DNA of 64,000 bases from Syntrophales bacterium (GTDB taxonomy: Bacteria; Desulfobacterota; Syntrophia; Syntrophales; UBA5619), in contig JAURXV010000053.1 in assembly GCA_030654195.1 (NCBI GenBank), positions 16,958-80,957 on the forward strand. Direction: 5' to 3'. Shown here piece after piece: positions 7,707-31,812 of this stretch. Below the pieces are notes generated by a model. That model was given only the letters and a program-made list of their open reading frames with translations, was not told the DNA's origin and ran no database searches. How positions within the stretch are numbered: position 1 is the stretch's first letter; every line of letters begins with the position of its first letter. The translations under genes and the position numbers were made by a program.

Positions 7707-7719
7707 ATTCCCCCTCCTT

Positions 7720-8361: not shown

Positions 8362-8368
8362 AATCAGT

Positions 8369-12255: not shown

Positions 12256-13050
12256 ATGCTGATCATTGCCGAGAGGATCAATGCGTCGCGAAAACAGATT
12301 GCACAAGCCATCAGCGCCGGGGACCGCGCCTTCATCCAGGGGGAGGCGAAGGCGCAGACCCAGGCGGGGGCGCATTACATCGACGTCAATGCCGGCACCT
12401 TCGTCGGCGAGGAGGCCGACAAGCTGAAATGGATCGTGGAGGCCGTCCAGGAGGTTACGGAACTGCCGCTCTCGATCGACAGCCCGGATGCCGAGGTGAT
12501 CAAAGCGGTGATGCCGCTGCTGAAGAAGACCCCGCTCATCAATTCCATAACGCTGGAGCCGTCGCGGATCGAGGGAATTCTGCCGATCATCGTTGCGCAC
12601 AAGACCAAGGTGATCGCCCTCTGCCAGTCGGGGCACGGGTCGGCTGAGACGACCGAGCGTAAGGTGGCGCTGGCGGGACAACTTGTGGAAAAGCTCACGG
12701 GGGCAGGCGTCCCCCTCGACGACATCTACATCGATCCCCTGGTATTTCCGCTGTCCACCAATCCGCAGTCGGCCAATGCGACCTTGAATGCGATCGGTGA
12801 GATCATGAAGAAATTCCCCGGCTCCCATACTATTTGCGGTCTCACAAATGTTTCCTACGGTCTTCCCGCGAGAAAGCTGGTCAACCGGGCTTTTCTTGCT
12901 GCCGCGATCACCAAAGGGCTGGATTCGGCCATCATCGATCCGACGGACAAGCTCCTCTATGCGATGCTGAAGGCCGTGACCCTCATCGTCGGCAAGGATG
13001 ACTTCTGCATGGATTACATTCGCGCCTTCCGCGATGGTCGCGTCGAATAG
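12256..13050 (+). CDS. Pterin-binding methyltransferase (methyl-corrinoid:tetrahydrofolate methyltransferase, MeTr/MtrH-like MT2), copy 1
   Basis: 264 aa. MLIIAERINASRK...AGAHYIDVNAG...SIDSP...INSITLE...YIDPLVFPLSTN...CGLTNVSYGLP is a dihydropteroate-synthase-like pterin-binding TIM barrel. By my manual alignment it differs from 21460-22254 at about 46 of 264 positions. Confidence 0.85.
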   Translation: MLIIAERINASRKQIAQAISAGDRAFIQGEAKAQTQAGAHYIDVNAGTFVGEEADKLKWIVEAVQEVTELPLSIDSPDAEVIKAVMPLLKKTPLINSITLEPSRIEGILPIIVAHKTKVIALCQSGHGSAETTERKVALAGQLVEKLTGAGVPLDDIYIDPLVFPLSTNPQSANATLNAIGEIMKKFPGSHTICGLTNVSYGLPARKLVNRAFLAAAITKGLDSAIIDPTDKLLYAMLKAVTLIVGKDDFCMDYIRAFRDGRVE

Positions 13051-13068
13051 CGGAAGAGGAGGAATGTC

Positions 13069-13767
13069 GTGTCGGTGGCTGAAGCGGAGCGGAATGGACG
13101 AAGTATGATCATCGCCTGCCGCGTCATGGAGCCGGAGCTGGCCCATCTCCTTTCGGAGAAGAACGGAGAGGATGATCGGACGGATATCCTCTATCTCGAA
13201 CAGGCTCTTCATCGGACGCCGGCCAAACTGCTCGGTCAGTTACAGGAGAAGATCGATCAAGTCGCGCGGACAGCCTCGCGGATCGTCCTCGGTTACGGCC
13301 TCTGCGCCAAAGGGGTTGTGGGAGTCACGGCAGGTGAGCCGGAGCTGATCGTACCCCGCTGCCACGACTGCATCGCCCTGTTTCTCGGTTCACCGAACCG
13401 TCATCTGGAGATCTTCCGGGAAAAACCGGGGACCTACTACCTGACGCCGGGCTGGGTTGCGGATAATCAGGATCCACTCGGACTTATAGAGGAGCACGTC
13501 CCCCGGTATGGCCGGGAGACGGCGCAGTGGGTGATCGAGGAGGAGCTGAAACACTATACCCATATCGCCCTGATCGATACGGGGGTGGAGGAGATGGCGC
13601 CGCTCCGGGCGCGGGCGATGGAAAACGCCGCCGTCCTGAAGAAACAGTATGAGGAGATCCCGGGCAGCCTCGCTTATTTCCGCGAACTCCTCCGCGGCCC
13701 CTACGCGGAGGAAAAATTCCTGCGCCTCCAACCTGGAGAGAAGTTCACCCAGGAGATGGTCTTTTAG
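13069..13767 (+). CDS. DUF1638 domain protein, copy 1
   Basis: 232 aa. GTG start 6 nt after GAGGAGG; ATG at 13105 is an alternative. IIACRVMEPEL...LEQALHRTP...GYGLC...PRCHDCIALFLGS...YYLTPGW fits my recollection of DUF1638, a family found beside corrinoid methyltransferases. It is a close paralog of 29196-29936. Confidence 0.7.
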   Translation: MSVAEAERNGRSMIIACRVMEPELAHLLSEKNGEDDRTDILYLEQALHRTPAKLLGQLQEKIDQVARTASRIVLGYGLCAKGVVGVTAGEPELIVPRCHDCIALFLGSPNRHLEIFREKPGTYYLTPGWVADNQDPLGLIEEHVPRYGRETAQWVIEEELKHYTHIALIDTGVEEMAPLRARAMENAAVLKKQYEEIPGSLAYFRELLRGPYAEEKFLRLQPGEKFTQEMVF

Positions 13768-13900
13768 TTTTTATTCCCCAGGGTCGGCAGATGGGGGAAG
13801 GCGTCCGACATGTGGGGGATGAACATGGCGGCCATGAACTCCTCCTGGAACTCTTTCGCAAGGGTCAGTTCGAGGTATTCGACCTCTTTTGCAACAACCT
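13764..13900 (-). pseudogene. 3'-terminal remnant of a corrinoid reductive-activator (RACE) gene
   Basis: 13783-13900 matches 29897-30014 (the 3' end of the intact RACE gene) with about 5 mismatches by eye. The minus-strand translation ...EYLELTLAKEFQEEFMAAMFIPHMSDAFPHLPTLGNKN* parallels the intact C-terminus ...EYLELTLVKEFQEEFMAAMFIPHMSDAFPHLPTQKTSPG*. Homology stops abruptly at 13900 and no upstream coding part remains. Confidence 0.65.
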
Positions 13901-14088
13901 CCTATTTATGCAATTTATTTTTGATTATTTTCACCCTCTGCTTGGGATTGAAATCAGGTTCTGGTCATTCCCGTGCTTCATTAATCGGCAACTGCAAATC
14001 CAGCTTAATTTAGACTTTTGCAATTACCTAAAACATTAGATGATTTATTGTAAACACCGGCTAATTTGCGCTGTATTAAAAAAATAAC

Positions 14089-14117
14089 TTGACAACTTAG
14101 TAGAATAATCCTATTAT
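14089..14117 (+). promoter_or_regulatory. Sigma70-type promoter candidate for the TRAP#1/methyltransferase operon
   Basis: TTGACA (14089-14094), 17-nt spacer, TATTAT (14112-14117), set in a GC-poor spacer about 200 nt upstream of the DctP start. Confidence 0.55.
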
Positions 14118-14320
14118 CCCATCGGATCATGGCTCTGCCCGCAAAAGCAAACGAAATCAACGAAAACAATCCTGGCAGGGTGTTCTTTCTCAGGGAAAAA
14201 CAAGGCAAGAGAATCCGGAGGTCGATTCCTCAGGTCGTTCGATTGAATGATTGAGGACGGATTTCGCTCTCCGGCAAGACAACAAGGGAAATCCAGCAAA
14301 AAATCATGAAGGAGGAGTCT

Positions 14321-15346
14321 ATGAAGAAAAGATGGTTTGTAATCGTTTGTGTTGTTTCGGTTTTGCTCTGGGTGGCCGCACCGGCGGCGGCAGCCGAGGG
14401 TCCCATCAAATGGAAAGCCCAAACTCTTTGGAATCCCCAGGAAACCCCCCAGAGAACTTTTGAAGACTTCTGCAAGAAAGTCAAGATTATGACCAACGGC
14501 CGGCTGGAGATCGAACCCTATCCGGCAGGCTCCATCGTTCCGACCAACGAAACCCTCACCGCAGTTCAGAACAATGTTCTTCAGGCTATCCATGTCTGGC
14601 CGGGATACGCCAGCGGCAAGAACCCCGCCTTTGCCGCCCTGACCGACCTGATCTTCGCCTATGAGCATCCATGGGAACTGGACACCTTCATGCACTACCG
14701 CGGGGGGCTGGACATGCTGCGCGATCTCTACAAACCGTTCAACGCCTATACCGTAGGCGTGATGTTCTGGGGCGTCGAGTCTTGGCCGTCCAAAAAGCCC
14801 ATTGCCAAACTGGCGGACCTCAAGGGCATCAAGATCCGCGAACCGCAGGGCATGGAGGCTGAATTCATGGTCAAGGCCGGCGCCGCCGTGGTTGTCATGC
14901 CGGGCACGGAAATCTTTTCCGCTCTGGACAAGGGCGTTGTCCAGGCCACCAACTGGGCGACCCCTTCCATCAACGACAAAACCGGGTTTCACCAAATTGC
15001 GCCTTTCTTCACCTACCCCGGTTTCCACTCCATGCCCATCGGAGACTTCACGGTCAACAAGGGTGAATGGGATAAGCTTCCCCCAGATATCAAGCAGATC
15101 CTCACAACGGCCACCCGCGAGTGGTGCTGGGATTCCGTCGAAAGGATCGCGATGGATGACCTGAAGGTGGTGGGTGAAGCCAAATCCAAGAAAATGACGG
15201 CTGTGGCCTGGAGCACGGAAGAGAAGGCCAAGGCCCGTAAGATCGCCCAGGGAATCTGGCAGGACTGGAAGAAGAAAAACGAGCAGACCAAACTCGTAAT
15301 CGAGGCCCAGGAGGCCTGGCTCAGGGAATTGGGACGCATCAAATAA
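14321..15346 (+). CDS. TRAP transporter substrate-binding protein (DctP family), system 1
   Basis: The ORF track starts at 14306. I prefer ATG 14321, preceded by GGAGGAG, giving MKKRWFVIVCVVSVLLWVAAPAAAAEG as a signal peptide. The mature part IKWKAQTLW...GRLEIEPYPAGSIVP is homologous to the second DctP at 24186. Confidence 0.88.
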   Translation: MKKRWFVIVCVVSVLLWVAAPAAAAEGPIKWKAQTLWNPQETPQRTFEDFCKKVKIMTNGRLEIEPYPAGSIVPTNETLTAVQNNVLQAIHVWPGYASGKNPAFAALTDLIFAYEHPWELDTFMHYRGGLDMLRDLYKPFNAYTVGVMFWGVESWPSKKPIAKLADLKGIKIREPQGMEAEFMVKAGAAVVVMPGTEIFSALDKGVVQATNWATPSINDKTGFHQIAPFFTYPGFHSMPIGDFTVNKGEWDKLPPDIKQILTTATREWCWDSVERIAMDDLKVVGEAKSKKMTAVAWSTEEKAKARKIAQGIWQDWKKKNEQTKLVIEAQEAWLRELGRIK

Positions 15347-15368
15347 CGGTTGAACCTGATTTCATCCC

Positions 15369-15405
15369 GGGAGGAAGAGATTGTTATTCTCTTCCTCCCC
15401 TTTTC
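15369..15405 (+). terminator. Post-SBP stem-loop / partial terminator (attenuates dctQM relative to dctP)
   Basis: Perfect 12-bp stem gggaggaagaga (15369-15380) / tctcttcctccc (15388-15399) with a 7-nt loop, followed by CTTTTC. Confidence 0.55.
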
Positions 15406-15425
15406 ATACGATCCGGAGGGTTGTT

Positions 15426-15926
15426 TTGAAAACGGCACTTTCTATTATTGATGCTTTCAGTACAAAGATCGGCAAAGCGGTCAGCATCCTGTCCTTATTG
15501 ATTGCCTTCAGTATCGGTTATGAAGTCATGATGCGCGACTTTCTGACCCGTCCCACCACCTGGGTGGCGGAGGCGACGATCTTCGGCTGCTCCCTTCTCT
15601 ACCTTCTGGGGGGGCCCTGGACCATGCTGACCGACAACCATGTTCGCGTGGATGTCCTCTATGTCCGATTCAAGCCCCGTGTCCGGGCCTTGGTCGACTG
15701 TCTGACCTATTTCGCCTTTTCCCTCTATATCGTGGTGATGGCGATAGCCACCTTCCGCTATGCGGCGCAGTCCATCGGTCTGCGGGAGACGACCCAGTCG
15801 CCCTGGAATCCGCCCATCTATCCGTTCAAGGCGGCGATGTTCATCGCCCTGACGATGATTTTTCTCCAGGGCACGGCCAAATTCATCCGGGATCTCCATC
15901 TCGTCGTCAAGGGGAGGCCTTTATGA
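15426..15926 (+). CDS. TRAP transporter small permease (DctQ family), system 1
   Basis: The ORF track begins at 15381, which lies inside the hairpin loop. TTG at 15426, 7 nt after GGAGGG, gives LKTALSIIDAFSTKIGKAVSILSLL... It has four predicted TM segments and its stop overlaps the dctM start (ATGA). Confidence 0.75.
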   Translation: MKTALSIIDAFSTKIGKAVSILSLLIAFSIGYEVMMRDFLTRPTTWVAEATIFGCSLLYLLGGPWTMLTDNHVRVDVLYVRFKPRVRALVDCLTYFAFSLYIVVMAIATFRYAAQSIGLRETTQSPWNPPIYPFKAAMFIALTMIFLQGTAKFIRDLHLVVKGRPL

Positions 15927-17242
15927 GCATTGAATGGATCAGTATTCTGATTGTCGTCGGTATGCTGTCAATGATGGTCCTGGGGTTGCCCCTGGCCTGG
16001 TCGATCGGATCGGTGGCGGTGGTGCTGACCCTGACCAAGTTCGACTTGAACGTCATGGTCATGCTGGTTTCTCGGGTTTTCGACATGAGCATGAATTACA
16101 CCCTCATGTCCGTGCCCCTCTTCGTGCTGATGGCCGGCATCCTCCAGCGCTCCGGCGTGGCGGAACATCTCTTCCGCGCCGTTCATATCTGGACGGGGAG
16201 GCTCCGGGGAGGGCTGGCCGTGGGCACGATCATCGCCAACGCCATCATGGCCACGATGGTCGGCGTCATCGGGGCGGAGATCGTCACCTTCGGACTGCTT
16301 GCCCTGCCGGAGATGCTGAAAAAGAAATATAATTACAAACTGGCCTTGGGCAGCGTGGCCGCGGGGGGCGGTCTCGCCACCCTGATCCCGCCCAGCGTGG
16401 TCTTCATCGTCTATGGAATGACTGCGGGATGTTCGGTCGGCGAGCTCTTCCTGGCGGGCATCCTTCCGGGCATCGGACTGGGGCTCATCTTCATCCTCTA
16501 CGTCATCGTCCACTGCTGGCGGCACCCGGAATCGGCGCCGGTGACGGCGGCGGATGAAGAGACGCTGACCCTCCGCGAGAAGCTGGCGACGCTCCGGGGG
16601 CTGGTACTCCCGGTCCTCATCGCCGGCGGCGTCCTGGGTTCCATCTACGCCGGAATCGCGACGCCCTCCGAGGCGGCCGGCGTCGGCGTGATTTTCGCCA
16701 TCATCGCCGCCGTGATCAACCGCCGCTTCAGTATCTCGATAATGCGGGAAAGCCTCTTTGAAACCCTCAAAATCAGCAGCATGCTGGCCTGGCTTTTTTT
16801 CGGGGCGCAGACCATCATCGGCGCCTATACGCTGTCCGGGGGCACCACCTTCGTCACCAACGCCCTCAAGGCGATGGACCTCGGACCTTGGGGCACAATC
16901 ATCTTCATGCAGCTCATCTGGGTCTTTCTGGGCTGTTTTCTCGACTGGATCGGCATCCTCTTCCTGACGCTTCCCATTTTTCTCCCGATCGTCCTGGACA
17001 TGGGGTTTGACAACGTCTGGTTCGGCGTGGTGTTCTGCATGAACATGCACATTGCCTATCTGTCGCCCCCCTTCGCCCCTTCGGCCTTCTACCTGAAGAG
17101 CATCGCACCGCTGGAGATCACGATGGGGCAGATCTACATGGCGATAATGCCCTATCTCTGGCTCACCATTTTGGCCACGGTCATCGTCACCGCCTGGCCC
17201 GGCCTGTCGCTTTGGTTGCCCAGACTGATGATGAGAGGATAA
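15923..17242 (+). CDS. TRAP transporter large permease (DctM family), system 1
   Basis: 439 aa, highly hydrophobic. Homologous to 25860-27182 (shared ...YLSPPFAPSAFYLKSIAP / YLTPPMAPGIFYLKGIAP). Confidence 0.9.
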   Translation: MSIEWISILIVVGMLSMMVLGLPLAWSIGSVAVVLTLTKFDLNVMVMLVSRVFDMSMNYTLMSVPLFVLMAGILQRSGVAEHLFRAVHIWTGRLRGGLAVGTIIANAIMATMVGVIGAEIVTFGLLALPEMLKKKYNYKLALGSVAAGGGLATLIPPSVVFIVYGMTAGCSVGELFLAGILPGIGLGLIFILYVIVHCWRHPESAPVTAADEETLTLREKLATLRGLVLPVLIAGGVLGSIYAGIATPSEAAGVGVIFAIIAAVINRRFSISIMRESLFETLKISSMLAWLFFGAQTIIGAYTLSGGTTFVTNALKAMDLGPWGTIIFMQLIWVFLGCFLDWIGILFLTLPIFLPIVLDMGFDNVWFGVVFCMNMHIAYLSPPFAPSAFYLKSIAPLEITMGQIYMAIMPYLWLTILATVIVTAWPGLSLWLPRLMMRG

Positions 17243-17253
17243 GGGGAGTTCAG

Positions 17254-18012
17254 ATGGATTTTATAGGAATCAAAAAAATGTCCGTTGCCGATGAGGTGTT
17301 CAAAATCATCCATGACCGGATCCTCAACGGCGAACTGGCGCCCGGCGATATCCTGCCGCCCCAGGACCAACTGGCCCGGCAGTTTTCGGTTAGTCGCAAT
17401 ACGCTGCGGGAGGCGATCCACAAGCTGGCGGCCATGGGTCTGTTGAAGACCAAAGCCGGCGTCGGCACGATCGTGGAGATGGGCAGCCCGGCCAGTTACG
17501 TCTCCTCCCTGAAGGACCATCTGCTGATCACCTCCGCCACGGCCGGCGAGTTCTTCGAGGCCCGGTTTTTCATCGAGATGGCCACGGTTCAGCTTGCGGT
17601 CATGCGGGCAAGTCAGGCCGACCTGGATGCCCTCTCGGCCGCGATCGACCGGCAGGAGAATGCCTTCCGGGAGGGTGACCTGGAGACCTTCAGCACTGAG
17701 GACACCTGTTTTCACGCGGAGCTGGCCAACATCAGCGGCAACATGGTTCTGGCCAAAATTCTGGCGACACTCCGGGACCTCCTGTATCAGTTCATCGCCG
17801 AGGTCGCCGTGTTTCCCGGCGCCGTCGACAGGGCCATCCGGTTCCACCGGCAGATCGTCGCGGCCATCACCACCCGCAACATCGGGGCCGCCAAGATGAA
17901 GATGCTCGAACACCTTGACGATGTGGCGCAGGCGATCCGGAAGACAACAGGGAAAGACCTGGGGTTGCAGCCCCTCTTTGACATGGAAAAGCGACCCCTA
18001 AAAGGAAGGTGA
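17254..18012 (+). CDS. GntR-family transcriptional regulator with FCD (FadR C-terminal) domain
   Basis: ATG 17254 after AAGGGGAG. The winged helix reads LPPQDQLARQFSVSRNTLREAIHKLAAMGLLKTKAGVGT, followed by a helical FCD-like C-terminal domain. Confidence 0.85.
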   Translation: MDFIGIKKMSVADEVFKIIHDRILNGELAPGDILPPQDQLARQFSVSRNTLREAIHKLAAMGLLKTKAGVGTIVEMGSPASYVSSLKDHLLITSATAGEFFEARFFIEMATVQLAVMRASQADLDALSAAIDRQENAFREGDLETFSTEDTCFHAELANISGNMVLAKILATLRDLLYQFIAEVAVFPGAVDRAIRFHRQIVAAITTRNIGAAKMKMLEHLDDVAQAIRKTTGKDLGLQPLFDMEKRPLKGR

Positions 18013-18015
18013 ACG

Positions 18016-19026
18016 ATGAAAGCGACACCATACAATCTCTTCATGTCGGCCCTCTACGGCGGCCGGAAAGGGATCCGCCCTCCAGCGGGGAATCCCACGT
18101 CGATCGCCTGCGTGGAATTGATGAAGGCCTGCGGGGCCTTTTTCCCGGAGGCCCATCTGAACCCCCGCGCGATGGCCGACCTGGCCCTGGCCGGCCATGA
18201 GCTGGCGGGTTTTGACACGGTCATGCCGGAATACAGTGTTCATCAGGAATCGGCCGCGCTGGGCTGCGAGATGGACTGGGGAAACGAAACGCGGATGCCC
18301 GATGCCAAGACGGCGCCGCACGCGGATTTTTCGGATGTGATTGTCCCGGAAAACATCCTCGAAAAACCTTCCTTTCGGGTCGTTCTCGACGCCCTGTCCA
18401 TGCTACGCCGGGAGGTCGGGGGGCAGGCGGCGATCATCGGCAAGGTCATGGGTCCCTGGACGCTCTCCTACCATATGGCGGGCACGCAGAATTTTCTGCT
18501 GCAACTCGGTCTCGGCGAGAAGGATAAAATCAACCGCATGCTGAGACAGCTCATGCCGGTCACCATCGCCTTCGCCAACGCACAGTTCAGGGCCGGCGCC
18601 GATGCGGTGGTCCTGGCCGACCACGCCACCGGAAACCTGGTCGGACCTTACCATTACCGGGACTATCTGCTTCCCATCCATCAGGAGATCACCGCACGGG
18701 TGGGTGGGCCCATGATCCTCCACATTTGCGGCAACTGCCTCGACCGTCTGGAGTTCTTCGCCGAATCCGGCGTCGACGCCTACCACTTCGAATGGCAGGT
18801 GGACGCCAGGACGGCGGTCGAGAAAATCGGCAAACGGATTTCTCTGATCGGCAATCTGAACAACGCCAAGACCCTGTATCAGGGCACGCCGGAGGACGTC
18901 TACAAGCAGGCCCGTTATTCAATTGAGGCAGGCGTCGATATCATCGGGCCGGAGTGCGCCGTTCCCCTCACGACGCCCCTGGCCAATCTCCGGGCCATCC
19001 CGGCCGCAGTGCGGGAAGGTTACTGA
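18016..19026 (+). CDS. URO-D/MtaA-family methyltransferase (stand-alone, zinc-motif type)
   Basis: 336 aa. MtaA/MtbA-like sequence with the H-x-C-x(n)-C zinc pattern (MILHICGNC ... GPECAVP). It sits immediately upstream of a corrinoid protein. Confidence 0.8.
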   Translation: MKATPYNLFMSALYGGRKGIRPPAGNPTSIACVELMKACGAFFPEAHLNPRAMADLALAGHELAGFDTVMPEYSVHQESAALGCEMDWGNETRMPDAKTAPHADFSDVIVPENILEKPSFRVVLDALSMLRREVGGQAAIIGKVMGPWTLSYHMAGTQNFLLQLGLGEKDKINRMLRQLMPVTIAFANAQFRAGADAVVLADHATGNLVGPYHYRDYLLPIHQEITARVGGPMILHICGNCLDRLEFFAESGVDAYHFEWQVDARTAVEKIGKRISLIGNLNNAKTLYQGTPEDVYKQARYSIEAGVDIIGPECAVPLTTPLANLRAIPAAVREGY

Positions 19027-19048
19027 TCCGGATCAAGGAGAAGGAAGA

Positions 19049-19687
19049 ATGAATGAATCCATCCAAAAGATCAAAGAAGGCGTCATTGAGGGCCGTCACA
19101 AGGAAATCGAATCCCTGGTCCGCGAGATCTGTAAAACGGGGATATCCCCGGACAAGGTGATTCAAGAGGGATTGATTGCCGCTATGAATGTGGTCGGTCA
19201 GAAATTCAGCGACGGGGAGATCTTTGTCCCCGAAATGATGGTTTCCGCCATGACGATGAAACTCGGCCTCAACATCGTCAAACCCCTCATGACCGGCAAG
19301 GCCGGCGCACCCAAAGGAACCGTTCTGATGGGAACTGTCAAAGGCGATCTTCACGACATCGGCAAGAATATCGTGGTCATGATGCTGGAAGGGGCCGGTT
19401 TCCAGGTGATCGACCTGGGCGTCGATATCGATGTGGAGAAAGTCGTGGCAGCGGTGGCCGAAGTCCGCCCCCAGGTGCTGGGCCTTTCAGCGCTGCTTAC
19501 CACCACCATGCCGGAGATGAAACGCGTTATCGAAGAACTCCGGGCGCGCGGTCTGCGGGACCGGGTCAAGGTTATGGTGGGGGGCGCCCCCGTGGACGCC
19601 GCCTTCGCCGAAAAGATCGGCGCCGACGGCTACGGAAGTGATGCGGTGCAAGCCGTGGCTCTGGTCCGCAGCTTCGTCGGTCATTAA
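19049..19687 (+). CDS. Corrinoid (cobalamin-binding) protein
   Basis: The ORF track starts at 18923. ATG 19049 after AAGGAGAAGGAAG gives a 212-aa protein with a B12 cap helical bundle plus Rossmann domain. Motifs: DxHxxG (GDLHDIGKN), SALLTTT and VMVGGAP. Confidence 0.9.
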   Translation: MNESIQKIKEGVIEGRHKEIESLVREICKTGISPDKVIQEGLIAAMNVVGQKFSDGEIFVPEMMVSAMTMKLGLNIVKPLMTGKAGAPKGTVLMGTVKGDLHDIGKNIVVMMLEGAGFQVIDLGVDIDVEKVVAAVAEVRPQVLGLSALLTTTMPEMKRVIEELRARGLRDRVKVMVGGAPVDAAFAEKIGADGYGSDAVQAVALVRSFVGH

Positions 19688-19706
19688 TCCGACATCAGGA
19701 GATACA

Positions 19707-21349: not shown

Positions 21350-21459
21350 TTCAGCCATGTTAACGTGAGGTTTCGACGACAGGGTCAGTCTAAAAAGAGG
21401 AAGGGATCACACTGCCAAAAGCTGGGAATCCCGGAGGTCAAAAAGAGAGGGGAAAACAT

Positions 21460-24098: not shown

Positions 24099-24185
24099 GT
24101 ACGGGGATCTGTTTCACCGGTCCAAAGCAGCATGGGGCTGCAAAGGCGGGGAAGCACAAGCTTTTTAAATCAGGAGGGAAAAATC

Positions 24186-25262: not shown

Positions 25263-25265
25263 TGA

Positions 25266-25308
25266 AAATCCGCCGGGCGTACCGGATGAACGGACGCCCG
25301 GCGGATTT
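25266..25308 (+). terminator. Post-SBP stem-loop (intercistronic attenuator / mRNA stabiliser)
   Basis: Perfect 15-bp inverted repeat aaatccgccgggcgt (25266-25280) / acgcccggcggattt (25294-25308) with a 13-nt loop, starting 4 nt after the dctP stop. Only a short T run follows. Confidence 0.5.
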
Positions 25309-25344
25309 AACTCGATCTCGCTTTGCCCTGTATGAGAGAAGGGA

Positions 25345-25863
25345 GTGATTTCCATGATGGCATCTTTTGTAAAGTTTATCGATGGCCTGAGCGGATGGAC
25401 GGGGAAATGGGTTGCCTGGTTCATCATCCCCAACGTGCTGGCGCTCGTCTATGAGGTCATTGCACGCTATATTCTGAACAGCCCCACCATCTGGTCCTAT
25501 GAAGTGACCTACTTCCTCTACGGGAGCCATTTCCTGCTGGGGGCGGCCTATGTCCTTTCCGTCGATGCCCACATCCGGATCGACATCTTCACCTCGCACC
25601 TCTCTCCGCGGACGAGGGCCGTCATCGATCTGGTCGGCTATCTGCTGCTGTTCTTCCCGGTGGTCATCGCCCTCGTCTATGCGGGAGGACAGTATGTCAT
25701 GCAGTCCTTCGAGATGGGCGAAAAATCGGGTCTCAGCCCGTGGAGGCCCTACCTCTATCCATACAAGGCCGTGATAACCATCAGCTTCATTCTTCTCTTT
25801 CTGCAGGGGATAGCTTGTTTTATCCGCAATATCAATTTTTTGGCGAGAGGAGAAAAGCCATGA
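25345..25863 (+). CDS. TRAP transporter small permease (DctQ family), system 2
   Basis: 172 aa from GTG 25345. ATG 25354, 8 nt after GAAGGGAG, may be the true start. Four TM segments, and the stop overlaps the dctM start. Confidence 0.8.
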   Translation: MISMMASFVKFIDGLSGWTGKWVAWFIIPNVLALVYEVIARYILNSPTIWSYEVTYFLYGSHFLLGAAYVLSVDAHIRIDIFTSHLSPRTRAVIDLVGYLLLFFPVVIALVYAGGQYVMQSFEMGEKSGLSPWRPYLYPYKAVITISFILLFLQGIACFIRNINFLARGEKP

Positions 25864-27182
25864 TGGAGAACATCTCCCTTTTCATGTTTCCGGTGATGAT
25901 CCTGGTCGTATTTGCAGGATTTCCCGTTACTTTCAGCCTGATGGGCATTTCTCTTTATTTCGGCATCGTCTGTTTCGGACCGGAGATCATCCCGATGATC
26001 ATCCGCCGCGTCTACGGCGTGGCCGACAACTATGTCCTCGCCGCCGTGCCGCTGTTCATTTTCATGGGAACGATGCTGGAGAGATCGGGCATCGCCAAAA
26101 TCCTTTTTGAGACGATCAGCATGTGGATGGGACGCATTAAAAACGGCCTGGCGGTGACGACCATCCTGATGTGCACGATCATCGCCGCCTGCACGGGGAT
26201 TATCGGAGCGGCCGAGGTGATGGTCGGGGTGATGGCCATACCGCCGATGATGAAACGGGGCTACAACCACGCCCTGATCGCCGGCACGGTCATCGCCGGC
26301 GGGGCGCTCGGCACCATCATCCCGCCGAGCGTCGTCACCGTCGTCTACGGTCCCGCCGCGGGGATATCCGTCGGCCGTCTGCTGATCGCCACGATCTTCC
26401 CCGGCCTTCTGATCTCGTCGGTCTATGTCTTGTACATTGTTATCCGTTCCTACGGCCAAAAGGGGTTTGCCCCGCCGATCTTTTCCGAGGATCGGGATAT
26501 TCCCCTGTCGCGGAAACTCAAGGCTACGGTTACCGGAATGCTGCCGTCCGTTGTCCTGATCTTCACCGTGATGGGCACCATCATTCTCGGCTTTGCCGCA
26601 CCCACGGAAGCCGCCGCCCTCGGCGCCTTCGGAAGCGTCCTGCTGACGATCGGCTACAGAAACTTTACCTTGAAGGTGTTGCAGGAGGCGACCATCCAGA
26701 CGCTCAAGATCTCCAGCATGATGATGATGATCCTGCTCGGAGGGTTCATGTTCAGCGGCGTCTTCCTCGGGCTCGGGGGCAGCGACGCCACGGAGAGGAT
26801 GCTGTCGGCCTTCAACATGGGGCCATGGGCGGTTCTTGTTTTCTTTCTATTTATCGTCTACCTTGCCGGGTTCCTCCTCGACTGGGCCAGTATCCTGCTC
26901 ATCTTCGTCCCCATCTTTTCGCCGATCATCGACAAACTGGGTTTTGACCCGATCTGGTTCGGCGCACTCCTCATCATGATGATCCAGACATCCTATCTGA
27001 CGCCGCCGATGGCGCCGGGGATCTTTTATCTGAAGGGGATTGCCCCGCCCGAGCTGACGACCCGGGAGATGTTTCGGGGTATTGTCCCCTATATGATGCT
27101 CCAGCTTCTCGCCATCGCCGTTGTGGTGTTTTTCCCGCAGATCGCCCTCTGGCTGCCGGAAAAACTGATCGGTTGGAATTAG
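25860..27182 (+). CDS. TRAP transporter large permease (DctM family), system 2
   Basis: The ORF track starts at 25740, inside dctQ. ATG 25860 overlaps the dctQ TGA (ATGA) and gives MMENISLFMFPV..., 440 aa, polytopic. Confidence 0.9.
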   Translation: MMENISLFMFPVMILVVFAGFPVTFSLMGISLYFGIVCFGPEIIPMIIRRVYGVADNYVLAAVPLFIFMGTMLERSGIAKILFETISMWMGRIKNGLAVTTILMCTIIAACTGIIGAAEVMVGVMAIPPMMKRGYNHALIAGTVIAGGALGTIIPPSVVTVVYGPAAGISVGRLLIATIFPGLLISSVYVLYIVIRSYGQKGFAPPIFSEDRDIPLSRKLKATVTGMLPSVVLIFTVMGTIILGFAAPTEAAALGAFGSVLLTIGYRNFTLKVLQEATIQTLKISSMMMMILLGGFMFSGVFLGLGGSDATERMLSAFNMGPWAVLVFFLFIVYLAGFLLDWASILLIFVPIFSPIIDKLGFDPIWFGALLIMMIQTSYLTPPMAPGIFYLKGIAPPELTTREMFRGIVPYMMLQLLAIAVVVFFPQIALWLPEKLIGWN

Positions 27183-27195
27183 AAAGGAGAGAAAC

Positions 27196-29133
27196 ATGAT
27201 GACCAAAAAAGAACGCATCCTCATGGCCATGCGGGGCGAGACCCCGGACATGCTGCCCTATACGCCGCGCTTCGACCTCTGGTACAATTCCAACTCCTAC
27301 CGGGGCACCCTGCCCAAGCGCCACCAGGGGCGCAGCCACGATGAAATCGCCCGTGCGGAAGGGTGGGCTCTGCACAAGGTCATCCCGGAACTCCTGGAAG
27401 TGGTCGATCCCTGGGAGAACGTGACGCGGGGCATCGGACTCTACAGCCTCAAGGAAAACGGTTACAAGATCAACTTTTCGCCCAACGTCCATCTGGAGGT
27501 CCGGAAGAGCCGCCAGGGCGACGAGGAATCCACGCGGGTGGAGTACCATACCCCCAAGGGTGTGGTCAGCACCAAGGAAGTGATCAACGAGGAGATGCGC
27601 AATGCGGGTGTTTCCATCACCTGGGTGCAGGAGCATGCCATCAAGCGGCCCGAGGATTACGAGATCTGGGCATACATCTTTGAGAACATCACGGTGACCC
27701 CGGACTATGACCGTTACCGGGCCTGGCAGAACCGCATCGGCGACGACGGCGTGGCAGTGATGATGGGCACCTTCTCCGCCTCGCCCACTCACCACATCCA
27801 GCGTGATTTTCTGGATGCCACCGAGTTCTTTTTTCATTACAAAGATCACGCAAGGGAGATGCGCCGACTGGCCGAGGCCATCGGCCTGGTGTACGAGCAA
27901 ACCCTCAGGGTGGTGGGCGATTCGCCGGCTGAAGTGGTCCTGTGGGGCGCCAACTACGACGACATGATCACCTACCCGCCTTACTTTCAGAAGGAACTGA
28001 CTCCCTGGATACGGAAAGCCTCCGATTACCTGGCTGCGAAGGGCAAACTGGTGATCTGCCACTGCGACGGTGAGAACCAGGGCCTCATCGACCTGATTGC
28101 CGATTCGGGCATGCACGTGGCCGAAGCGGTCTGCTGTGCACCCATGACAAAGCTGCCGATCGAGACCTACTGCGAGCGCTGGTGCAAATCCGGGAAACTG
28201 ACCCTCATGGGAGGCCTGATCCAGTCCATGCTTTCACCGGCCACGTCTAGCATCGAGGACCTCAATGCCTACCTTGACCATTTCTTCAAGGCCGTGACGC
28301 CGGGCAGCCGCATCATCCTGTCCGTGGCCGACACCACCCCGCCCAACGCGGATTTTGACCGCCTGGCCATGATCGCCGAGCGCGTGGAAAGGGAAGGCCG
28401 CCTGCCCCTCGAGGCCGGCGCCTTCCGCCCCCTGACCGAAGCGCAGTTGAAGCCGGTCGCCGGCCTCATGGCGCAAAAGGTGCCCGACGAGACCTTCCAG
28501 ACCGTCCACGCGGACGTGCTCGCCGGCAACGATGCGGACATCAAGGTTCACATCCAGGCGCTGCTCGACCAGGGGGTGAACGCCAAGGAGATTCTCAACC
28601 GCGGCATGCTCAGCGCCATGGAGGTGATCAGCGGGCGCTTCCGCGAAGGCACGGTGTTTATTCCCGAGGTATTGCTGTCCGCCCGTGCCATGAAGGAGGC
28701 CCTCGTCGTGCTCGAACCCTATCTGGCACAGGAAAAGAAGGATGTGAGCGGCAAAATTCTGCTCGGTACGGTGCGCGGCGACCTGCACGACATCGGCAAG
28801 AACATGGTGGCCACCATGCTGCGCGGCGTCGGTTTCGAGGTGGTGGACCTCGGCGTCAACATCACGGCGGAGGGTTTCGTTGCGGAGGTTGAAAGACAAC
28901 GGCCGGACATTCTGGGGATGTCTGCCCTGCTGACCACCACCATGCCCGAGATGAAGAAAACCATCGATGCCCTCATAGCCCGCGGGTTGCGGGGCCAGGT
29001 CAAGGTTGTGGTGGGCGGTGCGCCGCTCAACGAGAAATTTGCCCGGGATATCGGGGCGGACGGATACGGGAGCGATGCGGGGTCTGGCGTGGATTTGGTC
29101 AGACAGTTGCTGAAAGGGAATGTCCCTCGTTAG
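27196..29133 (+). CDS. Fusion protein: URO-D-family methyltransferase domain + corrinoid-binding domain (CmuA-like architecture), fusion 2
   Basis: 645 aa. The N-terminal ~420 aa is URO-D-like (KERILMAMRGETPDMLPYTPR..., VICHCDGEN, SVADTTPPNA). The C-terminal part is a B12 cap plus Rossmann domain with GDLHDIGKN, SALLTTT and VVVGGAP. Confidence 0.8.
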   Translation: MMTKKERILMAMRGETPDMLPYTPRFDLWYNSNSYRGTLPKRHQGRSHDEIARAEGWALHKVIPELLEVVDPWENVTRGIGLYSLKENGYKINFSPNVHLEVRKSRQGDEESTRVEYHTPKGVVSTKEVINEEMRNAGVSITWVQEHAIKRPEDYEIWAYIFENITVTPDYDRYRAWQNRIGDDGVAVMMGTFSASPTHHIQRDFLDATEFFFHYKDHAREMRRLAEAIGLVYEQTLRVVGDSPAEVVLWGANYDDMITYPPYFQKELTPWIRKASDYLAAKGKLVICHCDGENQGLIDLIADSGMHVAEAVCCAPMTKLPIETYCERWCKSGKLTLMGGLIQSMLSPATSSIEDLNAYLDHFFKAVTPGSRIILSVADTTPPNADFDRLAMIAERVEREGRLPLEAGAFRPLTEAQLKPVAGLMAQKVPDETFQTVHADVLAGNDADIKVHIQALLDQGVNAKEILNRGMLSAMEVISGRFREGTVFIPEVLLSARAMKEALVVLEPYLAQEKKDVSGKILLGTVRGDLHDIGKNMVATMLRGVGFEVVDLGVNITAEGFVAEVERQRPDILGMSALLTTTMPEMKKTIDALIARGLRGQVKVVVGGAPLNEKFARDIGADGYGSDAGSGVDLVRQLLKGNVPR

Positions 29134-29195
29134 ATCCGGCGGGGAGGCGTTTCGGCAATATTCGATATGACTCCCTGGTTTCCGAAGGAGATGCA

Positions 29196-29936
29196 ATGGA
29201 TTGTCCCCGAATTGCGGAATCGACCATCCGCAGGGGGCGGCGGGTGGTGATCGCCTGTCGCGTGATGGAACCGGAGCTGACACAGGTTCTGGCGGAGGGG
29301 AAGGAGCAGGTCGAGATCCTCTACCTTGACCAGGCCCTACACCGAACGCCGACCAAGCTACTCAGTCAGCTCCAGGAAAAGATCGATCAGGTCGCGCGGA
29401 CGGCCTCGCGGATCGTCCTGGGCTACGGCCTCTGTTCCAACGGCGTGGTCGGCGTCACGGCGCGTCAGCAGGGGCTGCTCATGCCCCGCTGCCACGACTG
29501 CATCGCCCTCTTTCTGGGTTCCCCTTCCCGCTATCAGGATGTGTTCCAGGAAAAACCGGGCACCTACTACCTGACGCCGGGCTGGATCGCGGAAAAGAAG
29601 GACCCCCTCGGAGTCCTGGAGGAGTATGTGCCCCGTTACGGCCGGGAGACGGCGCAGTGGGTCATCGAAGAGGAATTGAAGCACTACACCCATATCTCCC
29701 TCATCAATACGGGAGTTGAAGAGATGGCGCCCCTCCGGGCGCGGGCGATGGAGAATGCGGCCATGCTGAAGAAAGCGTATGAGGAGATTCCGGGCAGCCT
29801 CGACTACTTCCGCGAGCTCATCCGCGGTCCCTACACGGAGGAAAAGTTCCTGCGCCTCCGCCTGGGCGAGGCGTTCACCCAGGAGATGTTTTTTGAGTCG
29901 GCAGATGGGGGAAGGCGTCCGACATGTGGGGGATGA
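29196..29936 (+). CDS. DUF1638 domain protein, copy 2
   Basis: 246 aa, close paralog of 13069-13767 with the same Cys positions (IAC, GLC, CHDC). Its 3' end overlaps the convergent RACE gene by 62 nt. Confidence 0.7.
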   Translation: MDCPRIAESTIRRGRRVVIACRVMEPELTQVLAEGKEQVEILYLDQALHRTPTKLLSQLQEKIDQVARTASRIVLGYGLCSNGVVGVTARQQGLLMPRCHDCIALFLGSPSRYQDVFQEKPGTYYLTPGWIAEKKDPLGVLEEYVPRYGRETAQWVIEEELKHYTHISLINTGVEEMAPLRARAMENAAMLKKAYEEIPGSLDYFRELIRGPYTEEKFLRLRLGEAFTQEMFFESADGGRRPTCGG

Positions 29937-31812
29937 ACATGGCGGCCATGAACTCCTCCTGGAACTCTTTCACAAGGGTCAGTTCGAGGTATTCGACCTG
30001 CCTTGCAACAACATCGGCCTCCAGCCGTTTGTCGCGGTTCAGGAGGGCGATCCTTGCCCCGTCGCCCGCCGCGTTGCCGACCGACGAGACGCAATCGAGG
30101 TCGCAGTCGGGAAACATCCCGAGGATCATCGCCTCCGTTTTGTCGATATAGCTCCCGAAGGCGCCTGCAAGGATCACCCGGTCCAATTTCACGATCCCCA
30201 GCCTTTTCATCATCAGTTTCGCTCCTGCATACAGGGCGCCTTTGGCGAGTTGGACGCTCCGGACATCCTTTTGGTTGATCGTGATCGCCCCCTCCAGAGA
30301 GGTCTCTTCCGGCCAGGCGATGATGAATTCCGGTTTCCCATCGGTCAAGCGGAGCCGAGGCGTGGCGAGATCGGTACGGAAGCGGCCGCTTCTATTGATG
30401 ATCCCCGCCCGGTAAAGTTCGGCCACCCCGTCGATGATCCCGGAGCCGCAGATCCCCTTCGCGCCGGTGAGCCGGACCTCCGGCCGCCAGCGCTCTTCGC
30501 CGATGATTTTGAAAGAGACCTCCAACGTCTCGGGATCGATTCGAATCCGCTCGATCGCCCCGGGGGCGGCCCTCATGCCGAAGCGGATATGCGCCCCCTC
30601 CAGCGCGGGGCCGGTGGCGCAGGAGGCGGAGAGGAGCCTCTCCCGGTTTCCCATGACCATCTCCCCGTTCGTGCCCACGTCGATGATGAGGACCATCTCC
30701 TCCCGGCGGTAGGGTTCCTCCGCAATCAGGACCCCCACGTTGTCCGCCCCGACGAAGCCCGCCTCGATCGGGAGGATGTGGACATTGGCCGCGGGGTGGG
30801 TCGCAAGGCCGAGGTCGCGAGCCTTGATGTCCAGGCTGCGGTGTACGGCGGGGGTGAAAGGAGAGACGCCGAGCGGGCGCGGATCGATGCCGAGGAACAG
30901 GTGGTGCATCGCCGTGTTTCCGACCAGCGTGATTTCGAGGATGTCGGCGGGAGAGAGGCCGGCATCCCCGGTGACGGTCCGGATGAGGTGATTCAGACCT
31001 TCGATGATCGCCCCCCGCATCTTTTTCATGCCGTCCGGGTGGTCGATCACGTAGGTGATCCGCGCAATCACGTCATCGCCGTAGGTGACCTGGGGATTCA
31101 TCAGCGACTCGGTTCCGATGAGCTTTCCGGTCTTCAGGCTGCAAAGGTATCCGGCCACGGTGGTCGAACCCACGTCGATGGCGAGGCCGTAGGCCTCCTC
31201 CACCTCTCTTGGAAATACGGCAAGGATCTCCCGTTCCATCCGGATCGCTGCGGTGACCGTCCAGTTTCCCTGCCGGAGGGCGGCGGGGAGCCCGATAAGG
31301 GCGGAATAGTCGATCTCCGGCCGTTGCAGGCCGAACCGCTCCGCGAGGGCCGCAACCAGGCGTTCGTAGTCTCCCAGGGGATCGTTCAGCGTGGGGGGGG
31401 GAAGGGTTACCGAAAAGAGGCGGACGGCCGGGTTCAGGGAGATGGCCCTTTCAGACGCCTCTTTTCTCACCACCTGCCTGCCCGTTCGACTTTCCTCCGG
31501 CACAAAGATCAGGACATCTCCCCGGATGACTGCCGCGCAGGCCAGACGGAATCCCTCCGCCCGCTCTTTTTCTCCGATGAGTTTGCCCTCCTCTTCGGTG
31601 AACGGCGAGAGATGGTCGGGTAGCGAAGTGATTCCGAACCGATCAAAGATTCCCGACTCGATTCGGATCCGGCACTTTCCGCAGCTCTTCTTCCCGCCGC
31701 AGACCGATTCGATGCCTACGCCCAGGGAGCGGGAAGCCTCCAGGACGGTCTTACCTTCCGGGATCTCCCCTCGTCTGCCGGAGGGTTGAAAAATAACCTG
31801 ACTGTTCTTCAT
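29875..31812 (-). CDS. Reductive activator of corrinoid enzymes (RACE/RACo-type: N-terminal 2Fe-2S ferredoxin + ASKHA ATPase, DUF4445)
   Basis: The ORF track extends to 31929, but that extension overlaps the tRNA. ATG 31812 after GAGAGGTG gives MKNSQVIFQPSGRRGEIPEGKTVLEASRSLGVGIESVCGGKKSCGKCRIRI (plant-type 2Fe-2S motif), followed by a long ASKHA-like ATPase body (AIDVGSTTVAGYL..., IIDVGTNGEM...). Confidence 0.85.
   Translation of the reverse strand: MKNSQVIFQPSGRRGEIPEGKTVLEASRSLGVGIESVCGGKKSCGKCRIRIESGIFDRFGITSLPDHLSPFTEEEGKLIGEKERAEGFRLACAAVIRGDVLIFVPEESRTGRQVVRKEASERAISLNPAVRLFSVTLPPPTLNDPLGDYERLVAALAERFGLQRPEIDYSALIGLPAALRQGNWTVTAAIRMEREILAVFPREVEEAYGLAIDVGSTTVAGYLCSLKTGKLIGTESLMNPQVTYGDDVIARITYVIDHPDGMKKMRGAIIEGLNHLIRTVTGDAGLSPADILEITLVGNTAMHHLFLGIDPRPLGVSPFTPAVHRSLDIKARDLGLATHPAANVHILPIEAGFVGADNVGVLIAEEPYRREEMVLIIDVGTNGEMVMGNRERLLSASCATGPALEGAHIRFGMRAAPGAIERIRIDPETLEVSFKIIGEERWRPEVRLTGAKGICGSGIIDGVAELYRAGIINRSGRFRTDLATPRLRLTDGKPEFIIAWPEETSLEGAITINQKDVRSVQLAKGALYAGAKLMMKRLGIVKLDRVILAGAFGSYIDKTEAMILGMFPDCDLDCVSSVGNAAGDGARIALLNRDKRLEADVVARQVEYLELTLVKEFQEEFMAAMFIPHMSDAFPHLPTQKTSPG

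Follow-up and report, generated by a model that had tools for sequence, protein, structure and literature searches.

Which methylated compounds might a bacterium draw on if its genes for corrinoid-dependent methyl transfer are interleaved with two tripartite ATP-independent periplasmic (TRAP) transporters? This question is raised by a 64-kb stretch of contig JAURXV010000053.1 (assembly GCA_030654195.1, Syntrophales bacterium; hereafter the window) that contains an island of such genes at positions 12256-31812. It encodes three candidate substrate:corrinoid methyltransferases (MT1s), two of them fused to a corrinoid module (Fus591 and Fus645) and one of the MtaA type, together with a separate corrinoid protein (CoP), two pterin-binding methyl-corrinoid:tetrahydrofolate (THF) methyltransferases (MT2a and MT2b), a reductive activator of the RACo type, and a protein resembling LarA. 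The range of methylated compounds that anaerobes can feed into one-carbon (C1) metabolism is set by their corrinoid methyltransferase systems, and to our knowledge only few substrate classes of MT1s have been described, i.e., methanol, methylamines, quaternary amines, aryl methyl ethers, methyl halides, and methylthiols. We consider it likely that the island is catabolic and demethylates several imported methylated organic acids, with the methyl groups being passed to THF. All coordinates below refer to the window, for which open reading frames (ORFs) were listed and scanned with Pfam and NCBIfam profiles, while starts were picked by Shine-Dalgarno sequence.

A complete predicted corrinoid methyl-transfer system

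All parts of a corrinoid three-component system, that is, MT1, corrinoid protein, MT2, and activator, are present in the island and mostly score above curated cutoffs (Table 1). From 14321 to 29936, all genes lie on the plus strand and the widest gap between them is 110 nt (21350-21459), while the RACo gene is convergent with the second of two DUF1638 genes (DUF1638b) and overlaps it by 62 nt. This layout and the underlying domain calls had been proposed in a first-pass annotation made without database searches, and our profile searches reproduced them gene for gene. The same is true for the GDLHDIGKN motif (DxHxxG, His-on) that we found in each of the three corrinoid modules, at position 142 of CoP, 480 of Fus591, and 529 of Fus645 (numbering of the ORFs as scanned). 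All three modules comprise both the B12-binding_2 cap and the B12-binding Rossmann domain of Pfam and score best, though under the cutoffs, on MtgC-type NCBIfam models. The activator contains all four RACo Pfam domains (RACo_C_ter with E = 7e-97), and its closest NCBIfam model is AcsV with 476 bits, below the cutoff of 800 bits; a longer ORF starting from ATG-31929 would overlap the tRNA-Pro gene. DUF1638 proteins and RamA-like activases have been linked genetically to corrinoid/B12 reactivation (PMC5764234, PMC12478193). The earlier statement that no characterised system combines CmuA-like fusions with TRAP importers, DUF1638, and a LarA-like protein needs to be amended for the published link between DUF1638 and RamA-like proteins (PMC5764234), but it stands for the island as a whole, of which we found no characterised orthologue in literature searches, homologue searches, or source annotations.

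Recurrence of the gene set around Fus645 homologues

A pattern scan of GTDB genomes with an alignment of Fus645, of the kind that had been suggested with the first-pass annotation, yielded 80 loci (given below by their L numbers) onto which the island proteins were mapped. Homologues of Fus645 have the same sets of genes around them in these 80 independent loci, and this association exceeds chance. All of them are from metagenome-assembled genomes (MAGs), nearly all with delta-proteobacterial or Thermodesulfobacteriota labels such as Desulfobacterales, Syntrophaceae, Desulfobaccales, Desulfarculaceae, Ca. Adiutrix, or Desulfofustis, and few are labelled otherwise, including Burkholderiales, Hyphomicrobiales, Acidobacteriaceae, and Methanoregula. 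Such islands are common among uncultured bacteria of the sulfate-reducer type. Component counts were restricted to the 56 loci of at least 12 kb, of which 33 contain a TRAP transporter, 26 the MtaA type, 26 an MT2, 19 RACo, and 17 DUF1638. The LarA-like protein of the type found in the island (“group 22”) is encoded in 16 of these loci and a second LarA type in 17, with one or the other present in 21. At least one importer of the TRAP, tripartite tricarboxylate transporter (TTT), or major facilitator superfamily (MFS) kind was found in 41 of the 56, which argues for catabolism because transporters that depend on a solute-binding protein (SBP) are importers. The importers accompanying Fus645 orthologues belong to three TRAP types, TctABC (TTT), or MFS, and Bra-type ATP-binding cassette (ABC) transporter genes lie beside some of them.

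Two larger arrangements can be told apart. Arrangement A reads DctPQM1 - LarA-like - GntR - MtaA type - unfused MT1 (ca. 358 aa) - CoP - Fus645 - MT2 and in many cases has another LarA homologue, of the classical kind, downstream. Arrangement B, which we found in the closest relatives (L002, L011, L043, and L077; 83-94% DNA identity), reads MT2 - Fus591 - DctPQM2 - Fus645 - MtaA type - CoP - DUF1638 - RACo. A minimal form from Desulfobaccales consists of GntR - MtaA type - MT2 - DUF1638 - RACo - Fus645 - MFS.

Some loci showed further variation. In the closest relative, L043 (ca. 6000-10800), an extra methyltransferase set composed of a corrinoid protein ca. 40% identical to the island CoP, a 477-aa protein, and a 386-aa UroD-like protein lies on the opposite strand between DUF1638b and the MT2a/DUF1638a pair, and gene order there is therefore fluid. 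In MAGs labelled Burkholderiales and Proteobacteria (L036 and L037), a single DctPQM set lies between two Fus645-like paralogues with ABC transporter genes nearby, so that the Fus645 family also occurs in MAGs that are not labelled delta-proteobacterial. The Fus645 gene itself shows ca. 77-85% DNA identity in L003-L018, L032, L034, L055, L065, and L070, which carry differing delta-proteobacterial labels, and most of the genes around it had no megablast match in these same loci. Such conservation of the gene without its surroundings suggests either strong constraint or recent horizontal spread.

Three candidate methyltransferases with two kinds of motif

The MtaA-type protein aligns end to end with MtaA of M. 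mazei (PDB entry 4ay7, E = 3.5e-53) and has an intact zinc motif, H236-x-C238...C314. It stays below the equivalog cutoffs specific for coenzyme M (CoM), scoring 259 versus 400 for MtaA_Meth and 182 versus 600 for MtbA, and its best 120 matches are at least 72% identical and all environmental. A complete cluster from Syntrophobacteraceae (L084/L085) with the gene order Liv-type ABC - GntR/FCD - CoP - URO-D (336 aa) - Pterin_bind - LarA-like - DUF1638 - RACo contains no fusion, and the URO-D protein is therefore the only MT1 candidate there. Among archaeal homologues of MtaA, MtpA catalyses methyl transfer between methylmercaptopropionate (MMPA) and cobalamin (bioRxiv 10.1101/548461). We therefore think that the MtaA-type enzyme is probably a stand-alone MT1 for the adjacent CoP, and its His/Cys/Cys zinc site would fit thioether or metal-activated ether chemistry, i.e., S-methyl or O-methyl donors.

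For Fus645, it took a family profile and an AlphaFold2 (AF2) model to reveal the UroD fold of the N-terminal domain: Its Pfam URO-D score is below threshold (21.9 versus 23.9 bits), and plain sequence search found no relative of this domain in the PDB. A family profile built from 41 sequences matched the PDB entries of CdmB (9rui, E = 5e-11, C-terminal 230 residues only) and MtaA (4ay7, E = 0.003), and the AF2 model with a predicted local distance difference test (pLDDT) score of 95.8 has MtaA and UroD as top Foldseek matches at template modelling (TM) scores of 0.5-0.6. The MT1 domain of Fus645 comprises residues 1 to ca. 410 and carries an extra four-strand beta insert at 90-130. When residues 1-420 were searched against 1.84 billion representatives (50% identity clusters), we obtained 1267 clusters at E<=0.001 and 147 at E<=1e-30, and many of these relatives are stand-alone proteins of ca. 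395 aa. The N-terminal domains of both fusions are thus predicted to be UroD-fold MT1s.

The position of the H-I-C motif of MtaA reads H-S-D in Fus591 (H241, D243) and H-C-D in Fus645 (H289, D291), and the third zinc ligand C314 has its counterpart in N/S of Fus591 and D379 of Fus645. Residues H289, D291, D379, R25, K284, and R389 are at least 90% conserved across the Fus645 family, which has no conserved cysteine, and the conserved arginines and lysine among them would suit a carboxylate substrate. On the TIGR01463 model of MtaA and CmuA (cutoff 235.4), Fus591 scores 53 bits and Fus645 gives no match. What remains of the earlier description of these proteins as CmuA-like fusions is the order of a methyltransferase followed by a corrinoid domain, but neither the HxC...C motif nor a score anywhere near the TIGR01463 cutoff.

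A LarA-type enzyme as recurrent partner

Sequence search of the PDB found no solved LarA for the LarA-like protein, and the top 18 Foldseek matches of its AF2 model (pLDDT 84) in the PDB are all LarA-family enzymes with a probability of 1.0. What had initially been called LarA-N-like thus has a bona fide LarA fold and recurs in related clusters. Five residues are invariant in its family (R51, H83, H148, K161, and H177) with spacings of 32, 65, 13, and 16, compared to 33, 66, 10, and 16 for R75, H108, H174, K184, and H200 of LarA; we equated them by spacing and alignment to LarA2 without structural superposition. By this comparison, the protein would have the lysine tethering the nickel-pincer nucleotide (NPN), the two catalytic histidines, and the NPN-binding arginine and histidine. 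The counterpart of LarA D72 is not conserved in the family. The window contains none of larB, larC, and larE. In L081-L083 from Desulfobaccales, a LarC-type gene (PF01969, 3029-4213) lies ca. 6 kb upstream of a GntR - MFS - URO-D - CoP - LarA-like operon; the protein cluster of these three loci is indexed in 117 blocks of the assembly collection.

Genes for a short-chain dehydrogenase/reductase (SDR), dihydroxyacid/phosphogluconate dehydratase, LarE, TRAP transporters, sugar kinase, and glucuronate isomerase have been described as neighbours of group 22 LarA homologues (Desguin et al. 2020), and this would apply here if the NCBIfam numbering follows that study, as model names like “LarAH5/6/10” suggest. 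The second LarA type scores best on lactate-racemase and malate-racemase models. We also considered the LarA-like gene as a strict marker of methyltransferase clusters and rejected it because three of five sampled homologues were found in other contexts. We found no earlier report of corrinoid methyltransferase operons that contain a LarA homologue.

Importers, regulator, and neighbouring enzymes as clues to the substrates

Both DctPQM sets (14321-17242 and 24186-27182) are complete TRAP systems. The best PDB relatives of DctP1 are 4pe3 (E = 5e-58) and the lactate-binding protein of T. thermophilus (2zzv, E = 1e-52), while those of DctP2 are 4pet, 2zzv, 5cm6, 2hzk, and the keto-acid-binding protein 7ug8. 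Entry 2hzk was deposited as the sorbitol/mannitol SBP SmoM according to its PDB title and is probably TakP; the ligands that we assume for 4pet, 5cm6, and 2hzk follow in part their PDB titles. Both DctPs match binders of lactate, pyruvate, and 2-oxoacids best, and those that we presume to be of sugar-acid or dicarboxylate type score far lower against them. The GntR/FCD regulator has NanR, LldR, and PdhR as best NCBIfam models, all under their cutoffs. At four loci with a protein ca. 50% identical to Fus645 (L050, L051, L053, and L058), we found a divergent operon GntR/FCD - HpcH aldolase - D-2-hydroxyacid dehydrogenase - dihydrodipicolinate synthase (DHDPS)-family enzyme - Hyi-like isomerase on one side of this paralogue and TctABC genes, a URO-D protein, and a LarA-like gene on the other.

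The most likely class of substrates would therefore be small aliphatic 2-hydroxy/2-oxo acids or sugar acids that bear an O- or S-methyl group, because the matches of the DctPs, the kinship of the regulator, LarA genes in 21 of the 56 loci, the hydroxy- and sugar-acid enzymes nearby, and the group 22 neighbours all point this way. Methylated organic anions, which the first-pass annotation had proposed as donors, fit these clues well, but the methoxy-aromatic acids, dimethylsulfoniopropionate (DMSP), and N-methyl amino acids that it had listed are less favoured by the genetic context than derivatives of 2-hydroxy/2-oxo or sugar acids.

A proposed demethylation pathway

The observed domain identities, folds, motifs, and recurring neighbourhoods can be assembled into a pathway; what we infer in it is which way the methyl groups move, which substrates are used, and what each MT1 does. 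The two TRAP systems would import methylated carboxylic acids, from which three UroD-superfamily MT1s, each for different donors, would transfer the methyl group to Co(I). The MtaA-type MT1 with its His/Cys/Cys zinc site would work with the separate 212-aa CoP on S-methyl or metal-activated O-methyl donors, and the two HxD-type MT1 domains would each use their own fused His-on corrinoid module. The shared pterin-binding MT2s would then move the methyl group of CH3-Co(III) to THF, and methyl-THF could be oxidised or assimilated. The RACo ATPase, probably aided by DUF1638, would re-reduce corrinoids that have slipped to Co(II). The LarA-fold enzyme might invert the 2-hydroxy stereocentre, either in a hydroxy-acid substrate or in the product left after demethylation, to allow entry into central metabolism, and the GntR/FCD protein would control expression in response to the acid. 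The core of this proposal, i.e., import, transfer from MT1 via corrinoid and MT2 to THF, and repair by RACo, had already been suggested by the first-pass annotation and fits every domain call and the recurrence of the clusters.

A bolder version, which we hold only tentatively and would not count on, is that HxD fusions, MtaA-type module, and LarA-fold enzyme together constitute an unrecognised anaerobic route for demethylating non-aromatic methyl ethers and thioethers of hydroxy and sugar acids, in which the nickel-pincer enzyme would be indispensable for setting the stereochemistry of the product. Under this tentative proposal, O-methylated glycerate, lactate, or uronate (4-O-methylglucuronate) and methylthio-hydroxy acids might serve as substrates.

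Points against this proposal and rival explanations

Several observations weigh against the demethylation of hydroxy, oxo, or sugar acids. The likeness of the DctPs to lactate and pyruvate binders is at family level only and does not fix their ligands, homologues of the LarA-like protein with ca. 60% identity also occur in unrelated contexts, and neither the second LarA type nor the hydroxyacid dehydrogenases of related loci are encoded in the 64-kb window. We searched for a characterised precedent of the HxD motif and found none. An MtaA-type enzyme beside a pterin-binding MT2 is ambiguous and could instead methylate a thiol acceptor, the OpuA-type betaine transporter adjoining the island could hint at onium compounds, and all relatives are from MAGs or metagenomes.

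If the carboxylates were aromatic, the TRAP systems would import methoxylated acids (vanillate, syringate, or ferulate derivatives including methoxyphenyl-lactates) and the UroD MT1s would cleave their aryl methyl ethers. CdmB as the nearest solved relative of Fus645 falls into a clade with the aryl O-demethylase MT1s MtvB, OdmB, VdmB, and MtoB, some LarA homologues racemise phenyllactates (PMC11770544), and lignin monomers should be plentiful in the lakes, groundwater, and termite guts (“Ca. Adiutrix”) that the labels of related MAGs refer to. We nevertheless find this scenario unlikely because the kinship with CdmB is remote and limited to the 230 residues mentioned above, both DctPs match binders of small 2-hydroxy/2-oxo acids best, and the catabolic genes in related loci are of an aliphatic hydroxy-acid or sugar-acid type with no aromatic-ring enzymes seen among them. 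Somewhat less probable still is a serial demethylation of S-methyl carboxylates, either from DMSP or another sulfonium compound via MMPA to mercaptopropionate or starting from methylthio-hydroxy/oxo acids, in which the HxD fusions would take the onium methyl group and the MtaA type the thioether methyl group. The intact thiol-type zinc motif of the latter, its archaeal relative MtpA with MMPA:cobalamin methyltransferase activity, and the importer of the betaine/DMSP class directly upstream (6810-10137) are in line with this idea, as is an old physiological observation of THF-dependent DMSP demethylation by marine sulfate reducers to which, as far as we know, no genes have been assigned. However, the OpuA genes are on the opposite strand, several of the closest relatives have non-marine labels (including Lac Pavin and groundwater), and the LarA and hydroxy-acid context would be left unexplained unless the substrates were 2-hydroxy-4-methylthio- or dimethylsulfonio-butyrates.

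Methyl transfer might also run the other way, with the MtaA type passing the corrinoid-bound methyl group to sulfide, methanethiol, or a mercapto-acid, or with imported thiols being methylated from methyl-THF. MtaA family members normally methylate a thiol from methyl-corrinoid, the island protein scores above the family cutoffs and has kept the zinc ligands, and the MtaA type of Desulfobaccales has no adjacent corrinoid protein and would need the corrinoid module of Fus645. Yet a pterin-binding MT2 is always near, the MtaA type is the sole possible MT1 in L084/L085, and importers together with a catabolic-type FCD regulator dominate the context, so that we regard this direction as highly improbable. 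Dehalogenation of halomethanes, as by CmuA/CmuB or CdmBCA, or housekeeping methionine synthesis by a split enzyme would be a very different explanation with hardly any chance of being correct. The fusions resemble CmuA in architecture and the pterin-binding MT2s CmuB, CdmB is the best PDB match of the Fus645 profile, and the split MetH of Phaeobacter consists of DUF1638, RamA-like, pterin-binding, and corrinoid proteins. Against this stand the TIGR01463 scores and the lack of HxC...C in the fusions, the fact that gases need neither TRAP, TTT, or MFS importers nor an FCD regulator, and the absence of a homocysteine-binding domain in Pfam scans of all island ORFs.

A mosaic with two decay remnants

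While the island had initially been viewed as one system, it rather is a mosaic of recurrent modules with two remnants of decay: It joins a left half like arrangement A to a right half like arrangement B with a truncated MT1 at the seam. This 113-aa fragment, earlier called a truncated methyltransferase fragment, is 46% identical to residues 1-115 of Fus645 and best matches the N-terminus of an unfused 400-aa MT1 in L067 (72% identity), which refines the call to the remnant of a third Fus645-like paralogue. At the left edge, MT2a and MT2b share 82.6% amino acid and 80.5% DNA identity, DUF1638a and DUF1638b are 77% identical (tblastn), and the DNA at 13111-13901 is 81.6% identical to 29250-30015. 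Because a remnant of the RACo C-terminus on the minus strand lies 3' of DUF1638a, the MT2a/DUF1638a block is, judging by these alignments, an old partial duplicate (ca. 81% DNA identity) of MT2b and of DUF1638b with the 3' end of RACo. An 82-aa plus-strand ORF at 13791-14039 is an antisense artefact of this remnant. Two ORFs of 647 aa and 246 aa at 47232-50027 were considered as a further pair of fusion and DUF1638 and discarded, since tblastn with the island proteins gave no match there.

Gene inventory and flanking regions

The features of the island are listed in Table 1.

Table 1. Genes and other features of the methyl-transfer island, with coordinates in the 64-kb window.
Feature	Coordinates	Strand	Evidence or location
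MT2a, pterin-binding methyl-corrinoid:THF methyltransferase	12256-13050	+	Pfam Pterin_bind; NCBIfam PRK07535 312 bits (cutoff 259)
DUF1638a	13069-13767	+	PF07796, E = 3.7e-41
RACo C-terminus, pseudogene remnant	13782-13922	-	tblastn, RACo residues 632-678, 79% aa identity
Sigma-70-like promoter TTGACA-17-TATTAT, 11/12 matches	14089-14117	+	ca. 200 nt 5' of DctP1, in AT-rich spacer
DctP1, TRAP solute-binding protein	14321-15346	+	Pfam DctP, E = 3e-46
12-bp hairpin after DctP1	15369-15399	+	Hairpin scan
DctQ1, TRAP small permease	15381-15926	+	Pfam DctQ
DctM1, TRAP large permease	15923-17242	+	Pfam DctM; TIGR00786 299.6 bits (cutoff 268)
GntR/FCD transcription regulator	17254-18012	+	Pfam GntR and FCD
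MtaA-type UroD-family methyltransferase, 336 aa	18016-19026	+	TIGR01463 243.5 bits (cutoff 235.4); PRK06252 263.6 bits (cutoff 244)
Stand-alone corrinoid protein (CoP), 212 aa	19049-19687	+	Pfam B12-binding_2 and B12-binding; GDLHDIGKN
LarA-fold protein, homologue of NPN-dependent isomerase “group 22”	19707-21008	+	NCBIfam NF052515 441 bits (cutoff 400)
113-aa fragment, N-terminal remnant of third Fus645-like MT1 paralogue	21008-21349	+	No Pfam match; pairwise identity
MT2b, pterin-binding methyl-corrinoid:THF methyltransferase	21460-22254	+	Pterin_bind; PRK07535 315.7 bits (cutoff 259)
Fus591, UroD-family candidate MT1 domain and corrinoid module, 591 aa	22323-24098	+	Pfam URO-D 67 bits, B12-binding_2, B12-binding
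DctP2, TRAP solute-binding protein	24186-25262	+	Pfam DctP
Strong hairpin after DctP2	about 25266-25310	+	Hairpin sequence
DctQ2	25345-25863	+	Pfam DctQ
DctM2	25860-27182	+	Pfam DctM; TIGR00786 292.9 bits
Fus645, divergent UroD-fold candidate MT1 domain and corrinoid module, 645 aa	27196-29133	+	Pfam B12 domains; family profile; AF2 model
DUF1638b	29196-29936	+	PF07796, E = 1.2e-43
RACo/RamA-type reductive activator (2Fe-2S and ASKHA ATPase)	29875-31812	-	Pfam Fer2, RACo_linker, Raco_middle, RACo_C_ter
tRNA-Pro(TGG), right edge of island	31897-31973	-	Rfam; abuts RACo start

An AT-rich spacer (13768-14320) that includes a leader of ca. 200 nt precedes DctP1. We searched this leader and the entire island for a cobalamin riboswitch or other Rfam RNAs and found only tRNA-Pro; the leader is not conserved in related loci, and the intergenic regions contain no GntR operator palindromes of the T.GT-N-AC.A type. 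The promoter listed in Table 1 is only suggestive because the number of such sites across the region does not exceed shuffled expectation, and the same holds for terminators. A GC-rich hairpin is found directly 3' of each DctP gene and before DctQ; these hairpins may serve in attenuation or stabilise the mRNA and so increase the amount of binding protein over that of the permeases.

Upstream of the island on the minus strand, an Opp/Dpp-type ABC transporter (462-6623; SBP_bac_5, two permeases, and ATPase) with an inserted gene of the MmgE/PrpD family (1613-2953) is followed by the OpuA-type ABC importer of the glycine-betaine class, which comprises an OpuAC binding protein, two permeases, and an ATPase with a CBS domain and is divergent from the FTCD gene (10372-12060). 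We considered FTCD, a genuine formiminotransferase-cyclodeaminase, as a member of the island and dismissed it because none of the 80 loci contains a counterpart. Downstream, tRNA-Pro is followed by housekeeping genes; in the closest loci L002 and L011, it does not lie beside RACo.

Comparison with known systems

In agreement with the first-pass annotation, which had called the system undescribed, we found no characterised orthologue in full-text literature searches, homologue searches, or source annotations, only generic proteins of MAGs and metagenomes. Searches with full-length Fus645, the MtaA type, or the LarA-like protein each gave environmental proteins by the thousand, and wherever the source names an organism, it is an uncultured MAG with an almost always delta-proteobacterial or Thermodesulfobacteriota label. 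The overall logic of the system is well known and uncharacterised clades of UroD-type MT1s are to be expected, but natural MT1-corrinoid fusions of the HxD type, the systematic coupling to organic-acid importers, and the recurrent LarA-type partner are unusual. Such consistent coupling to organic-acid importers and LarA-type enzymes suggests a class of substrates beyond those known so far, and to identify it would reveal a further way in which methyl groups are turned over in anoxic habitats. If true, the demethylation of hydroxy or sugar acids would provide widespread uncultured Thermodesulfobacteriota with a methyl source that has not been assigned to them. Artificial fusions of methyltransferases and corrinoid proteins have already been engineered for biocatalysis (PMC9930637), and the natural ones could become useful there once their substrate is identified.

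The closest parallels in overall logic are CdmBCA and the aryl O-demethylases (OdmABCD, Vdm, MtvABC, and MtoABCD), which likewise combine a UroD-superfamily MT1 with a corrinoid protein, a pterin-type MT2, and an ATP-dependent activator. The chloromethane:corrinoid MT1 CdmB comes from Acetobacterium and stands beside the aryl O-demethylases in the UroD superfamily (PMC13222342). Like the island fusions, it has a UroD-type barrel without a cysteine zinc site, but the two are only distantly homologous, with the similarity confined to the C-terminal half of the barrel, and the MT1 domain of Fus645 is fused to its corrinoid module and features a conserved HxD...D motif and the beta insert. Unlike in CdmBCA and the O-demethylases, the genes of the island are tied to carboxylate importers, FCD regulators, and LarA-type enzymes. 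In the chloromethane dehalogenase of aerobic methylotrophs, CmuA combines a methyltransferase and then a corrinoid module in one polypeptide with CmuB as separate pterin-binding partner, and this domain order is shared by the island fusions; they differ from CmuA by falling far below the MtaA/CmuA cutoff without HxC...C, by keeping the histidine of DxHxxG, and by their context of organic-acid import.

The 336-aa protein passes the cutoffs of TIGR01463 and PRK06252 and retains every zinc ligand, like its relatives MtaA, MtbA, MtsA, and MtpA, the zinc methyltransferases of methanogens, and MtpA illustrates that this family can use a methylthio-carboxylate. In contrast to methanogen MtaA and MtbA, it is below the CoM equivalog cutoffs, is encoded by a bacterial host, and is paired with a THF-type MT2. 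In the glycine-betaine system MtgABC and the split methionine synthase of Phaeobacter and Ruegeria, DUF1638 and a RamA/RACo-type activase act alongside a corrinoid protein and a pterin-binding methyltransferase, as is predicted for the island, but Pfam detects neither an MttB-family MT1 nor a homocysteine-binding domain in the latter, whose MT1s are predicted to be of the UroD fold. With the LarA superfamily of NPN-dependent 2-hydroxyacid racemases and epimerases, finally, the island protein shares the fold, the group 22 model, and counterparts of five residues, and a larC-type gene lies near a homologous cluster.

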